Shown: positions 1 to 64,000, counted from the stretch's first letter. The stretch is DNA of 64,000 nt from Escherichia coli (GCF_016026235.1 NZ_CP065613.1); one strand, 5' to 3'. A program made the numbers and translations. The notes: a model not told the origin generated them from the letters alone.

Positions 1-387
1 CCCAAAAGGAGTATTCGGATTTTGCACGGCAATTCCGAGCCAGACGCAAGGAATAATCAGGATTGCAGTACTAAAAACCGTCCATCGGCGTCCACCGAAT
101 ATAGGCACCATAAAGGAGTAGGGAACACGCAATAATGCGCCAGAAACGGAGGGTAATGCGGTTAATAAAAAGAGTTGATCGGTAGTAAAATTAAAACCGA
201 TTTTATTGAGATTAACGGTAACTGCGCTAAATAGCATCCAGACACAGAAGGCAAGAAGTAGACAACTGACTGATATCCAGAGGTTTCTTCGAGCAATATG
301 TTTTCCTTTATTTTCCCAGAAGGCCGGATTTTCTGGTTTCCAGTCGCGTAAAAGATAACGACTATTTTTCTCATTTTGCAGTGCCAT
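1..387 (-). CDS. narU: Nitrate/nitrite transporter NarU, N-terminal part (gene continues beyond window start)
   Basis: Minus-strand frame starting at ATG 385-387 translates MALQNEKNSRYLLRDWKPENPAFWENKGKHIARRNLWISV... (NarK/NarU MFS N-terminus) and stays open to position 1. The listed 70-aa ORF 162-374 is in a different frame. Confidence 0.8.
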   Translation of the reverse strand, partial: MALQNEKNSRYLLRDWKPENPAFWENKGKHIARRNLWISVSCLLLAFCVWMLFSAVTVNLNKIGFNFTTDQLFLLTALPSVSGALLRVPYSFMVPIFGGRRWTVFSTAILIIPCVWLGIAVQNPNTPFG

Positions 388-710
388 ATTGTTCCTCACA
401 TGCACACATTGGTAATGAAAAAAGACAAAACAGGAGGTAAGGCGCAATAGCCAGTTATTAGAATTAAGGATGAATTGGGTGAAGTGCTGATTGAAAGAAT
501 AGATAAGAAAGCGTAACCGCGGGGGCAGAATGGGGATTAAGTAGCCAGATATGTGTTACTAAATGTAACTAACAAGCTAACCTTCAAACGGGGGTTAATC
601 TTTGAACGTATGTCATGTTTCAACCCTTCAGATCGTGAATCTAAAGGGTTACATATTAACTATATTATCAACAAGACCAGACACTTATAGAATTAGTGAT
701 GATTTATTCA

Positions 711-2042
711 CTAAAAAGGCCATGAACTGGAGGAAAACGATCTGTCCAGAAGGTCTATCGGTTCCTCTCTTATTGCCTGATTGTAATAATCGTTATTACA
801 GTAAGTATTGTTTATTTCATCTAAGGTCATGTTTTTAACTTTTATATTCCTCTGGTTTACAACTTCCTCTGTCTTGTAAGTGTGTATATTATATGGGGTA
901 TATGCTTTTTTAATAGGATAGTGAAACAATTCGTTATCCACATCTATTCCGTCAGAGTGAACTTCAAATGCACCAGGCGAAAGAATTGCCAGGCCAGTAT
1001 TAAGCTTAAGTGCTGGGGAAAACAAATTAAATAACATGAGCTGCATAGTAGGGCAATTGTTCTTCCCAGAAACATTTAAAAAATTTAAGTTTTTGCTCTG
1101 TTTTATTATGGGGAATAAAGTTCCAATATCGGATGTATTATTAGTATCAATGTGGGTTATTTTATTATTGTCCAGTCTTAAACTTTTGATAGATGGAAGA
1201 TAAGTCAGGAAATCAAGATTTATATATTTCAACTGGTTGTTAGCAGCGTTTAATGTCTGAACATTGCAGAAGTTGCTATAGAATATTTTAATTTCAGAAA
1301 GCAAATTGTTGTTAATAAGTAACGTATTCAAGTTGGGAAATAAGTCGTTGTGTAAACTTGTTAGTTTATTATGGGATAGATCCAGCAGTAAGAGTTCATT
1401 TTTATTACCTGCAACAATATCAGTTAATTGATTATGGCTGAGATTCAGGTATTGCAGCCATTCGCAAGATTCTAATTGCACAAACTCTAGTTGATTATGT
1501 GCCGCACTAAAATAAGTAACTGATGAAAGCCTATCTATATCAATATTTCTGAGAGCATTATTATTCATAGATATATGTGTAATACTTACATTTCTGCCTT
1601 GAGGAAAATTTATTGACTCAAGAGCATTACTATTCAGACTTAGCTTTACGAGTCTATCGTAGTTGGTTGCATCAAAATGTGTGAGTTGGTTATTATCAAG
1701 ATTGATAGATGTGAAGTTTTGCAGCCCTGGTGGTTGAGTGGTTAAATTAAGTCCTGATAAATCAATGGTCACTTCATTAGTGTCATCAATTATATTTCTT
1801 ACTGCAGTCCAGTACTGCATTTGTGCAAGTGGATCATTGTTGATGCCGTTAACTAATACATGCCAAAGATGTTTTGATGATATTAGTTGATCAATGTCAT
1901 TGGTTGGCAGTAAATTGTTATTGCTTAAGTTTAAATATTCCAGTTTTGTAGTGTTTTTGGCGTTTAAATGTGCAATATGGTTGTCGTTTAAAGTGATTGT
2001 TTTCATCCTGGGATGATTGTGTAATATAAGGTCAGTGATCAT
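711..2042 (-). CDS. yddK: Leucine-rich-repeat protein, YddK family (443 aa)
   Basis: Repeated LxxLxLxxNxL units (LNLSNNNL, LDLSHNKL, LRLDNNKI) throughout the ORF; sits between narU and the yddL porin fragment. Longer than the K-12 yddK as I recall it, so probably the uninterrupted form of yddK+yddJ. Confidence 0.7.
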   Translation of the reverse strand: MITDLILHNHPRMKTITLNDNHIAHLNAKNTTKLEYLNLSNNNLLPTNDIDQLISSKHLWHVLVNGINNDPLAQMQYWTAVRNIIDDTNEVTIDLSGLNLTTQPPGLQNFTSINLDNNQLTHFDATNYDRLVKLSLNSNALESINFPQGRNVSITHISMNNNALRNIDIDRLSSVTYFSAAHNQLEFVQLESCEWLQYLNLSHNQLTDIVAGNKNELLLLDLSHNKLTSLHNDLFPNLNTLLINNNLLSEIKIFYSNFCNVQTLNAANNQLKYINLDFLTYLPSIKSLRLDNNKITHIDTNNTSDIGTLFPIIKQSKNLNFLNVSGKNNCPTMQLMLFNLFSPALKLNTGLAILSPGAFEVHSDGIDVDNELFHYPIKKAYTPYNIHTYKTEEVVNQRNIKVKNMTLDEINNTYCNNDYYNQAIREEPIDLLDRSFSSSSWPF

Positions 2043-2065
2043 ATTGTGATGGGCACTTAACTCAA

Positions 2066-2356
2066 TCAGAGATTCTTGCCGCGCGAGCCGTTGGCTTCAT
2101 CGTTATAGCCTTTAAAATCATATTCCCAGTGACCAAAACCAATCATTTGATCATTGATTTGCGTTTCTCCTTTAAAGCCGAGACGGGCATAAGTTTTATC
2201 ACCATCGTCACGCTTATCATCAGTAAAATAACGTAGAGCGGTAACCTTGCCATAAAGGTCGAGTTTATTACCATCCTTGTTATAGACTTCGGCAGCGTGT
2301 GCTACGTTCGCAGCTAACAAACCAGTTACAACCACCGCAACTATTTTTAATTTCAT
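2066..2356 (-). pseudogene. yddL: Porin N-terminal fragment (OmpC/OmpF-like), 96 aa
   Basis: [10 protein letters not shown]...[17 protein letters not shown]... matches general porin signal peptide and first strands, but the ORF stops after 96 aa. Confidence 0.6.
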
Positions 2357-2614
2357 TTAACAGAATCCTTTTAATTATCGTTAAACGTATTTTCTAAACG
2401 AATTTTAAACGGCGTCATTTATAAATGACATACTGTTTTTAAAATAGAATGGTGATTAAAAACAATGAGAAAAATAGATGAAATAATATTATTTATCGAT
2501 ATGTGATCGAAGTCGAAATGAGATATAAGGTGAATTACTGGTATTTGAAATTTATTTTTTAATATTGTCGGAATTTATCTGATTAACTGCCGGGCCGTAG
2601 ACCCGGCAATTATT

Positions 2615-62102: not shown

Positions 62103-62105
62103 TTA

Positions 62106-63020
62106 TCACGTCAGCTGGTAATGACGATCGGGAAGAATTTTTGCTGGAATTTCGGCTTCATCGTTCATCTGTAACAGGTCAATTTCAATAGCGTTGCAGA
62201 TGGCATCCAGCGGTAAATCATTGTTTTCAGTACCGAACGGATCTTCCAGTTCTTCCGCCAGACAATCCAGCGAAATAAAAGTGTAGGAAATCAGCACAGA
62301 GATAAAAGGCGTCATGTAATGCAGGTCCACGACCAGCGCGAACGGCAGCATGATACAAAACAGATAAACGGTACGATGCAAAATCAGTGTGTAGGCAAAG
62401 GGAATTGGCGTATAGGCAATGCGCTCGCAGCCTGCCAGGACCGCTGAAATATCATTAAGCCGATCGTTGAGGCTAATAAACAGGATATCTGAAAGCTGTC
62501 CATTGCGGCGCTGAACCGCCAACCATTCTCCCATTATTAACAAGATACGGTTAGCTGGAGAGTTCGAAGCCAGTACACGCTGAAGATCTTCAGTCTTGAG
62601 ATAATGAGCCAGCACTTCCGCCTGTGGCTGTTTGCGTAATGTCATGCGTAAACAGTGAGCGAAGGCGATTTGCAGCCTGGCAAACTCCCTTACACTTGCC
62701 GAATCCGGCAATGTCGTTTTTACCTCGCGCAGTAACGACCGTGAGGCAATCATCAACTGCCCCCAAAGTTTTCGCGCTTCAACGTAACGGGCGTAACCGG
62801 CATTATTACGAAAACCAAGAAAAATGGCGATGGCGACACCGAGAATGCTGAACGGTGCGAGGGTGAATTTGATGCCCAGATGCGTGTACCAGGGCAGCAT
62901 GAAAATAACAGCGATAGAAAAGAGAAAATTGAGTAGTAAGCGCGAGGATATCTTGGATAATACTGAGCCATGCCAGACAAAAATACGGCGCAGCCAGTGT
63001 TGTTGTGGACGAACAATCAT
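62106..63020 (-). CDS. yneE: Bestrophin-family membrane protein YneE
   Basis: Start chosen at MIVRPQQHWLRRIFVWHGS (304 aa) inside the listed 321-aa ORF. Confidence 0.8.
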   Translation of the reverse strand: MIVRPQQHWLRRIFVWHGSVLSKISSRLLLNFLFSIAVIFMLPWYTHLGIKFTLAPFSILGVAIAIFLGFRNNAGYARYVEARKLWGQLMIASRSLLREVKTTLPDSASVREFARLQIAFAHCLRMTLRKQPQAEVLAHYLKTEDLQRVLASNSPANRILLIMGEWLAVQRRNGQLSDILFISLNDRLNDISAVLAGCERIAYTPIPFAYTLILHRTVYLFCIMLPFALVVDLHYMTPFISVLISYTFISLDCLAEELEDPFGTENNDLPLDAICNAIEIDLLQMNDEAEIPAKILPDRHYQLT

Positions 63021-63180
63021 GGTTATCTTCAGGCGTGGAAAAGTCGCCCTATTAAACGTGATTACGATCACATTCTCAAGACGCTACTTACAAATTACCT
63101 ACAAAATTACAACATTAACAGGCGCTGCATGTGGCACCTGTTAATGATAAAGGCTTATAGGATGTTGTAACTAATATAAT

Positions 63181-63209
63181 GAAATAAGAAACCCGGTCGA
63201 AACCGGGTT
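63181..63209 (-). terminator. Rho-independent terminator downstream of uxaB
   Basis: On the minus strand: stem AACCCGGT / ACCGGGTT with a short loop, followed by TCTTATTTC. Confidence 0.5.
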
Positions 63210-63216
63210 CAGAGTA

Positions 63217-64000
63217 TTAGCACAACGGACGTACAGCTTCGCGCATCCCTTTTTCGAGAATCGCATCCAGGTCATTAGCCACCTGCTCGACCAGACCAGG
63301 CACTTGCGTCAGGTCCTGCTCCCAGTGGTCTTTTTCTGCCAACACAATCGCTACCAGTTCCTGGGTACCGATAACACGGTCACGATGCTGACTCCAGAGT
63401 TGCTGATAACGTTCCAGCCAGTGTGCATCGTCCTGTACCGGATATGTTTCTCCGTTACGCTCACCGCGATAAAACGCAATCAATGCCGCTAATGCGAAAG
63501 TAAGGCGCGCCGGAAGTGTGCCTTTTGCCTTCTGCCCTGCCAGCAGCTGCGGCAGGATGCGGGTGCGGAACTTGGTCATACCGTTGAGCGCGATAGACAG
63601 CAGCTGATGCTTGATGTACGGGTTACGGAAACGCCCGGTAACTGCACTGGCGAAAGACTCCAGTTCATCGCGAGGCAAATCCAGAACCGGAATAATTTCT
63701 TCGTAGATGGCTTTTTCAACGAATGCGCAAATTTCAGCATCGTTCATCGCTTCACCTACGGTATCCAGCCCTGCCTGGAACGCCACCGGCACCAACGCGG
63801 TGTGTGCACCGTTGAGTATTGCCACTTTGCGTTCTTTATACGGTTTAATATCGTCAACAATCAGCACGTTGAGCGGATATTTGTCCAGACGCAGCTCGGT
63901 CGCTAAGGATTTCGGTCCCTGAATCACAAACAGGTAAAAGTGTTCAGCGGTGTCGAGGAAACCATCGTGATAACCCAGTTCTTCTTCCAGTTTAGCCACT
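63217..64000 (-). CDS. uxaB: Altronate oxidoreductase UxaB, C-terminal part (gene continues beyond window end)
   Basis: ORF ends ...[16 protein letters not shown] at 63217 and is open to the window edge; mannitol-dehydrogenase-family C-terminal domain. Confidence 0.85.

Follow-up and report, generated by a model that had tools for sequence, protein, structure and literature searches.

In Escherichia coli, the lsr genes for uptake of autoinducer 2 (AI-2) have undergone at least eight independent inactivations, which were rapid and involved multiple lesions (Brito et al., Genome Biol Evol, PMC3595036), and a genome of the species carries between 22 and 95 pseudogenes (Touchon et al., PMC2617782). 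The latter work also describes the replication terminus as a region in which recombination and the efficiency of selection are reduced. In Shigella, 36-73 pseudogenes are found genome-wide per 1,000 single-nucleotide variants (SNVs) (Hawkey et al., PLoS Genet 2020, PMC7373316). Here, we describe gene inactivation in a 64-kb stretch of an E. coli chromosome (GCF_016026235.1, NZ_CP065613.1; the whole stretch, positions 1 to 64,000, is called the window below), which is the dif-centred region of the replication terminus. Four units are damaged in it: the ddp genes with the neighbouring dos genes, the lsrACDB transporter genes, the yde chaperone-usher fimbrial operon, and an autotransporter gene of the ECSE_1600/yneO family.

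A preliminary description of the window, made from the sequence alone, had listed at least eight gene-disrupting events, mostly in accessory surface, signalling and uptake functions. We checked the lesions gene by gene by mapping the annotated coding sequences (CDSs) of four intact references (EC2641, VE-V10-F, EC22 and O157 strain 493/89) to the window and translating the homologous segments, while allele frequencies were searched among 5,426 complete genomes. All eight named events were confirmed and the assignment to accessory functions is supported. In total we count 10 events, two in ddp/dos, two in lsrACDB, two in the fimbrial operon and four in the autotransporter gene. Thus, each of the four units carries at least two lesions and their neighbours are intact, with about 40 further genes of the window found to be full length by the same mapping. 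The window probably records how four dispensable units decayed step by step, through successive hits, within a single natural clonal lineage.

Four units of the terminus region carry multiple lesions

In the ddp/dos unit, a nonsense mutation and a large deletion were found:

13280..14206, minus strand: ddpF pseudogene, nonsense mutation R119* (CGA>TGA) at 13850-13852
14199..15166, minus strand: ddpD remnant, first 19 nt including the start codon gone
15166..15167: junction of the ddpD-dosC deletion, 7,355 bp lost, at most 1-2 bp of microhomology
15146..15952, minus strand: dosC remnant, an open reading frame (ORF) of 268 aa, globin and middle domains kept, GGDEF domain lost

The 7,355-bp deletion fuses nt 20 of ddpD to nt 787 of dosC and takes out ddpC, ddpB, ddpA, ddpX and dosP, and it also clips 19 nt from the 5' end of ddpD and 596 nt from the 3' end of dosC. 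Its junction occurs in none of the 5,426 complete genomes and was found in at least 12 independent assemblies from the Sequence Read Archive (SRA); 13 contigs with the truncated DosC fusion were read, one of which is common to 9 samples. The ddpF segment is missing from 21% of the complete genomes, and none of the 4,265 that carry it has the TGA codon, which was verified in contigs of relatives (L020-L027). This nonsense codon is present on at least three divergent haplotypes, through either recurrent mutation or spread by recombination. In the contigs L021, L023, L025 and L026, the haplotypes with CGA>TGA differ from the window at 2 nt in codons 1-119 and at 13-27 nt in codons 120-309. Counts of the 118-aa DdpF product (92 contigs, 150 blocks) were rejected as a measure of allele frequency, since many of these are truncations at contig ends that carry CGA, as in L028 and L029, which include a contig from a Nepal gut metagenome.

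The lsr unit carries two small insertions:

55484..57021, plus strand: lsrA pseudogene, +2 frameshift by a GA duplication at 56335-56336, leaving a product of 322 aa and a second ORF of 191 aa
58043..59037, plus strand: lsrD pseudogene, +2 frameshift by an AG duplication at 58867-58868, giving a 306-aa product

The lsrA segment is missing from 39% of the complete genomes, and the insertion is found in none of the 3,299 that carry it. For the lsrD allele no full-length exact match was found among the 5,426. The frameshift products of LsrA and LsrD were recovered in 23 and 13 contigs, respectively. The two ORFs of lsrA overlap at their ends and each encodes an ABC_tran domain.

In the fimbrial operon, one gene is interrupted by an insertion sequence (IS) and another one is truncated:

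35646..36355, minus strand: 3' part of ydeQ, a FimH-like tip adhesin gene
36356..37686, plus strand: IS2 (IS3 family) inserted in ydeQ, 1,331 bp, with a 5-bp target duplication GTAAT at 36351-36355 and 37687-37691
37687..37896, minus strand: 5' part of ydeQ
42780..43099, minus strand: remaining 3' part of the fimA-like major pilin gene, ending at the junction of a 949-bp deletion (43099/43100)

The element in ydeQ is identified as IS2 by its Pfam domains (HTH_Tnp_1, HTH_21 and rve) and by the annotation of the same element in strain FDAARGOS_943, the single complete genome among the 5,426 with an insertion at this site. In 13 other genomes both halves of the junction query were matched in two pieces, within about 500 bp of each other. 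The N-terminal YdeQ product that runs into IS2 occurs in 6 contigs of four assemblies. The 949-bp deletion takes the 5' 244 nt of the fimA-like gene, the region upstream of it and the yneL fragment, and its junction is likewise found in one of the 5,426 genomes, again FDAARGOS_943. The usher and chaperone genes are intact.

The autotransporter gene is the most heavily damaged of the four units:

45161..46747, minus strand: C-terminal fragment of the autotransporter gene (ECSE_1600 family / yneO), aa 1279-1806
46748..48196, plus strand: ISEc20 (IS110 family), lying within the poly-C tract of the autotransporter gene at about aa 1279 (C4, IS, C7), with its transposase encoded at 46975-48171
48197..52080, minus strand: N-terminal part of the autotransporter gene, with a 17-bp deletion at 49923/49924 (about aa 700) and a 64-bp duplication
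51907..52034: perfect tandem duplication, 64 bp x 2.0, 100% identical, in the signal-peptide region (about aa 16-40), causing a +1 frameshift

The transposase matches PF01548 (5.6e-48) and PF02371 (7.1e-22), as expected for the IS110 family, and the element is 99.2% identical to the ISEc20 annotated on plasmid p948 of the enterotoxigenic strain H10407, which lies in a similar AATT(T)CCCC target. The fourth lesion is hidden: a +1 slip of the poly-C tract predates ISEc20. The ancestral tract is C8, and the C9 of the close relative GCA_902503985.1 is a frameshift. In the window, the C runs on the two sides of the element (46744-46747, C4; 48197-48203, C7) add up to 11 C, that is 9 + 2, which fits entry of ISEc20 into the already slipped C9 tract with duplication of a 2-bp core. 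One complete genome of the 5,426, EC22, has ISEc20 at this site. There, too, the element interrupts the poly-C tract, but the numbers of C differ and the flanks are only about 97.6% identical to the window. Since the IS110 family inserts site-specifically, the insertions in EC22 and in the window are likely independent. The use of this tract in both genomes and the similar target on p948 suggest sequence-specific targeting of a slippage-prone C tract by an IS110-type element.

Because at most one of the 5,426 complete genomes carries each of the lesions searched for, they are young and lineage-specific.

The lesions recur in relatives as nested sets

The exact truncated products and junctions of the window recur in GCA_000805835.1, GCA_002466675.1, GCA_001907535.1, GCA_001907565.1, GCA_902503985.1, ERR926423 and several SRR runs. 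The preliminary description had allowed that some of the small lesions might be consensus errors; the presence of the same alleles in independent assemblies and SRA runs refutes this. Both small insertions are duplications of a dinucleotide (GA and AG), not changes in a homopolymer, and they recur in short-read assemblies. No lesion is private to the sequenced stock, as all are common to other assemblies or runs. Thus, the lesions are real and inherited.

Relatives are found with the first hits only, with intermediate sets and with the full set. The closest complete genome, FDAARGOS_943, differs from the window by 33 single-nucleotide polymorphisms (SNPs) over about 52 kb (99.76-99.96% identity) and has, of the window's lesions, only ydeQ::IS2 and the pilin deletion; its ddpF, ddp/dos, lsrA and lsrD are intact. 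In GCA_902503985.1, which is 7 SNPs away over 31.6 kb, ddpF already has its stop, lsrA its frameshift and the autotransporter gene its C9 tract (ORFs of 1,289 and 503 aa). ISEc20 and the other two autotransporter lesions (17-bp deletion, 64-bp duplication) are absent from it, and both the dos-ddp region and lsrD are intact. ERR926423 and SRR17652795 have ISEc20 and the lsrD frameshift in addition, and still lack the 17-bp deletion and the 64-bp duplication. Every lesion is present in the source strain and in GCA_000805835.1, within the stretches recovered. The 64-bp duplication is present in GCA_000805835.1 and absent from contigs of relatives (L034-L036), and the 17-bp deletion, as judged by ORF length, is also in GCA_000805835.1. 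In this way the order of the first hits is visible in relatives for three of the four units, the fimbrial operon being the exception. Relatives also have lesions of their own: adhP is split in SRR13627093, uxaB has a 7-bp insertion in SRR17652795, and the dosC remnant has an additional private break in SRR23545530. This nesting, with SNP differences and private lesions, leaves the proposal of a laboratory-adapted lineage unsupported.

Stepwise decay is the probable explanation of the lesions

In the scheme that we favour, a first hit would abolish the function of a unit, and later hits would then escape selection and gather at about the mutational rate. In ddpXABCDF with the neighbouring dosCP, R119* in ddpF would have been followed by the 7.4-kb deletion; in lsrACDB, the +2 shift in lsrA by that in lsrD; and in the autotransporter gene, the slip of the poly-C tract from 8 to 9 by ISEc20 and then by the 17-bp deletion and the 64-bp duplication. 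For the fimbrial operon the hits would be the deletion of the pilin gene and promoter and the IS2 insertion in ydeQ, to which no order is assigned. The remaining genes, about 40, would have stayed intact under purifying selection. The first hits were presumably tolerated because these accessory functions are dispensable to the lineage, through relaxed selection or drift; in the species, the affected genes are dispensable, as the absence of the ddpF and lsrA segments from large fractions of the complete genomes indicates. The location at the terminus and the kinship with an EIEC-type strain (EIEC, enteroinvasive E. coli; see below) may contribute.

The distribution of the later events agrees with this scheme. 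Five events have occurred since the lineage separated from GCA_902503985.1, and each of them struck a unit that had lost its function by then (p = 0.0034; such units account for 32% of the ancestral 69.5 kb). This pattern is expected where intact genes are under purifying selection and dead genes decay neutrally. In coding sequence, the window and FDAARGOS_943 differ by 14 nonsynonymous (3 of them nonsense) and 9 synonymous changes, a ratio typical of very recent divergence or relaxed constraint. Damage to the fimbrial and autotransporter loci has also arisen independently in K-12, O157, EC22, EC2641 and FDAARGOS_943.

Several points weigh against so simple an account. The 7.4-kb deletion also took the still-intact dosCP and was therefore not purely a second hit. 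The excess of damaged units over a normal E. coli pseudogene load is marginal, with p of 0.04-0.06 if a genome is taken to have 95 pseudogene loci and p = 0.36 if it has 200. Both the independence and the clustering of the lesions were overstated in the preliminary description, as the ten events are confined to four units and, in terms of selection, are not independent of each other. Disruptive events in the window amount to about 500-700 per 1,000 SNVs, against the genome-wide Shigella figure given above, and this high local ratio may reflect something beyond simple drift, or else ascertainment bias, which is possible because the window was picked for having lesions. The source-genome sequence examined comprises the window and about 40 kb of flanks, and the density of lesions found there may be representative of the whole genome or may be a local enrichment. 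Furthermore, the split LsrA (322 + 191 aa) and the C-terminally altered LsrD are only presumed to be null, as judged from their predicted products.

Adaptive loss and position at the terminus are less probable

The sister strain FDAARGOS_943 has a 155-kb, IS-riddled plasmid (NZ_CP065616.1) that encodes ipaH9.8, ospG, ospC2, sepA, virK, capU and phoC, and because of ipaH9.8, ospG, ospC2, sepA and virK we regard it as an EIEC-type strain with a pINV-type plasmid; the 150 kb of the plasmid that were examined have no annotated ipa-mxi-spa genes. Genes for F4-like fimbriae and for a type IVb pilus cluster lie on the plasmid as well. IS1 is abundant in FDAARGOS_943, with 4-5 copies in the region homologous to the window, and the strain has many chromosomal lesions of its own there: frameshifts in maeA and pqqL, stops in ddpB, digH and ydeN, an IS1 insertion in the usher gene, and a deletion from hipA to lsrK by which the autotransporter gene is gone. 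The IS content of the window is one IS2 and one ISEc20, and no IS1 was found in its 64 kb. A host-restricted lineage, the other possibility raised in the preliminary description, is therefore plausible through this EIEC-type sister, but the window is without IS1, and a look-up of exact plasmid protein variants linked no pINV-type plasmid to the source.

One alternative is adaptive loss of a pathoadaptive or antivirulence kind, in which the loss of adhesins, of AI-2 uptake and of O2/cyclic di-GMP (c-di-GMP) functions was selected during an EIEC-related niche shift, and the clustering reflects selection. In its favour, the fimbrial operon and the autotransporter gene were also destroyed, independently, in the carrier of the pINV-type plasmid, fimbriae are lost convergently in Shigella and EIEC (PMC7373316), the loss of lsr has been argued to be too fast for neutrality (Brito et al., PMC3595036), and the recurrence of ddpF R119* on divergent haplotypes also counts in favour of selection. 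However, when a dead gene is hit again and again (there are four hits in the autotransporter gene), this is what neutrality predicts, and it would be pointless under selection. The same loci decay in the commensal and laboratory strain K-12 and in O157, and a look-up restricted to the exact protein variants of the FDAARGOS_943 plasmid found none of them under the source-assembly accessions, so that no pINV marker is tied to the source. We therefore consider adaptive loss possible but unlikely.

A broader proposal, which we find doubtful, is that the roughly 70 kb around dif are a preferential gene graveyard, and that the source lineage is at the earliest stage, before IS expansion, of a reduction of the EIEC/Shigella type that starts at the terminus. 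The graveyard would fit the ratio of disruptive events to SNVs in this region, which is above even the genome-wide Shigella rates; the early stage would fit the two derived lesions that are common to the window and the EIEC-type strain, in the absence of an IS1 expansion.

Very unlikely, in our judgement, is a positional effect, according to which the flanks of dif are prone to deletion, IS capture or slippage, through breakage and repair at the terminus or through weaker selection and recombination there, so that lesions would accumulate in this region whatever the lineage. Such an effect would fit the 158 bp that separate dif from the end of the 949-bp pilin/yneL deletion, the independent deletions or replacements beside dif in K-12, EC2641 and FDAARGOS_943, and the reduced efficiency of selection at the terminus (Touchon et al., PMC2617782). 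In FDAARGOS_943, about 12 events were counted in 79 kb of the terminus against 2-4 per 50 kb in two other regions sampled, but these two are the only controls and come from the sister strain rather than from the source. On the other hand, many complete genomes retain all of these genes, for example VE-V10-F, in which the fimbrial operon and the autotransporter gene are intact. Moreover, mutations of unrelated kinds are involved (one point mutation, slips of dinucleotides, IS2, an IS110-family element and illegitimate deletions), and position is confounded with gene content, the affected genes being dispensable accessory ones.

Finally, it is extremely improbable that the small lesions are PacBio consensus errors or arose over decades of culture-collection storage: although the source is a culture-collection (National Collection of Type Cultures-type) long-read assembly and several relatives without a single difference over 5-20 kb could represent repeat sequencing of one strain, every lesion recurs in independent, mostly short-read assemblies, the indels are not homopolymer errors, the relatives are nested with SNP differences and private lesions (adhP, uxaB, the dosC remnant), and two lesions are common to FDAARGOS_943, 33 SNPs away over 52 kb.

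Other features of the window

The dif site, the yddL fragment and the poly-C slip that precedes ISEc20 are additions to the preliminary description. The gene order of the window is narU'-yddK-like LRR (leucine-rich repeat)-yddL'-yddG-fdnGHI-yddM-adhP-maeA-sra-bdm-osmC-ddp-dos-digH-gadCB-pqqL-yddBA-ydeMNOP, followed by the yde fimbrial operon-dif-hipAB-ECSE_1600/yneO autotransporter-lsrKR/lsrACDBFG-tam-yneE-uxaB'. None of the complete E. coli genomes in RefSeq matches the window exactly; by exact matches to its truncated proteins it is assigned to contig UGFA01000002.1 of assembly GCA_900449985.1, at roughly 727-791 kb. The following elements lie outside the damaged units:

2081..2356, minus strand: fragment of the porin gene yddL, an ancient pseudogene that matches, at 100% identity, the copy annotated as 'incomplete' in EC2641 and FDAARGOS_943
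4310-4368: SECIS_3 element (selenocysteine insertion sequence), 84 bits, directly after TGA codon 196 of fdnG
12640-12682: tandem array, 18 bp x 2.4, 96% identical, in the osmC-bdm intergenic (promoter) region
43258-43285, minus strand: dif, the XerCD chromosome-dimer resolution site, a perfect 28/28 match, with none expected by chance

Given the position of dif, the window is centred on the replication terminus; hipBA, which adjoins dif, is intact. The in-frame TGA in fdnG was rejected as a lesion, as it is a selenocysteine codon with its SECIS element. The preliminary description had counted two perfect tandem duplications, of which we find just one, the 64-bp duplication in the autotransporter gene; Tandem Repeats Finder and a scan for direct repeats gave no second perfect one in the window. 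The 18-bp array is imperfect and ancestral, being present in the intact references too, and its copy number is polymorphic among relatives: 2.4 copies are found in the window, EC2641 and FDAARGOS_943, and GCA_902503985.1 and others are 18 bp shorter.

Next to yddL, the gene for the yddK-like LRR-domain protein (711-2042) is intact; the GC content of its segment, about 35%, is far under the window average. Just past position 64,000 on the source contig, downstream of uxaB, lies a gene for a GGDEF diguanylate cyclase that is broken into two ORFs (396 and 62 aa). It is split in the source and in relatives, and is annotated with an 'internal stop' in FDAARGOS_943. This is another lesion in a c-di-GMP gene, just outside the window.

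Comparison with known systems

For annotation, ddpF, ddpD, dosC, ydeQ, the fimA-like pilin gene, the autotransporter gene, lsrA and lsrD should be recorded as pseudogenes and not treated as errors to be 'corrected'. We predict that the strain can import neither AI-2 nor D-Ala-D-Ala and that it is without the oxygen-dependent c-di-GMP signalling of DosCP. Lesion counts overstate independent losses here, as the ten lesions amount to four functional losses. Decay of this sort is already known in kind; it is ordinary pseudogene decay and no new biology is implied.

The nearest parallel for the lsr unit is the decay of lsr in E. coli described by Brito et al. (PMC3595036), where a small frameshift in a transporter gene is followed by a further lesion in the operon. 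As there, luxS-independent reception would be lost, and lsrK, lsrR, lsrF and lsrG are intact. Unlike in that work, the lsrA +GA and lsrD +AG alleles of the window occur in none of the 5,426 complete genomes, and no IS or large truncation has entered the lsr genes of the window so far, which places them at an early stage.

At the same locus, next to hipBA and dif, K-12 MG1655 has the pseudogenes ydeT', yneL' and yneO', and its copies of the fimbrial operon and of the autotransporter gene are inactivated too. The lesions are independent, however: K-12 lost the N-terminus of the usher, the chaperone and the pilin, whereas in the window the 5' end of the pilin gene and ydeQ were hit, and the usher and chaperone were spared. 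The autotransporter gene is frameshifted, with an internal stop, in O157, and is split by two copies of IS903B in EC2641, in which the fimbrial region is replaced. EC2641 (NZ_JALDNN010000001.1, 592000-641000) is 99.87% identical to the window over the first 15 kb, and its segment from yddB to the pilin gene is exchanged for IS903B-bounded foreign DNA with dimethyl sulfoxide reductase-like genes, Tn3 and integrases.

The reductive evolution of Shigella and EIEC (Hawkey et al., PMC7373316) resembles the present case in the loss of fimbrial and adhesin genes, in the involvement of IS2, in the build-up of pseudogenes together with SNVs, and in the sister strain FDAARGOS_943 with its IS1 expansion and pINV-type plasmid. 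It differs in that the window has only two IS elements in 64 kb, neither of them IS1, and the hallmark loci of Shigella/EIEC reduction (cadA, nadAB, speG and flagella) lie outside the window.

In more general terms, the window agrees with the extinction of pseudogenes described by Kuo and Ochman (2010), as far as that study is cited in PMC3595036: deletions, indels and IS elements gather after a first hit, and most pseudogenes are young and lineage-specific, so that with respect to the account as cited we see no difference in kind. What distinguishes the window from that account is that the order of events is here read directly from nested relatives.

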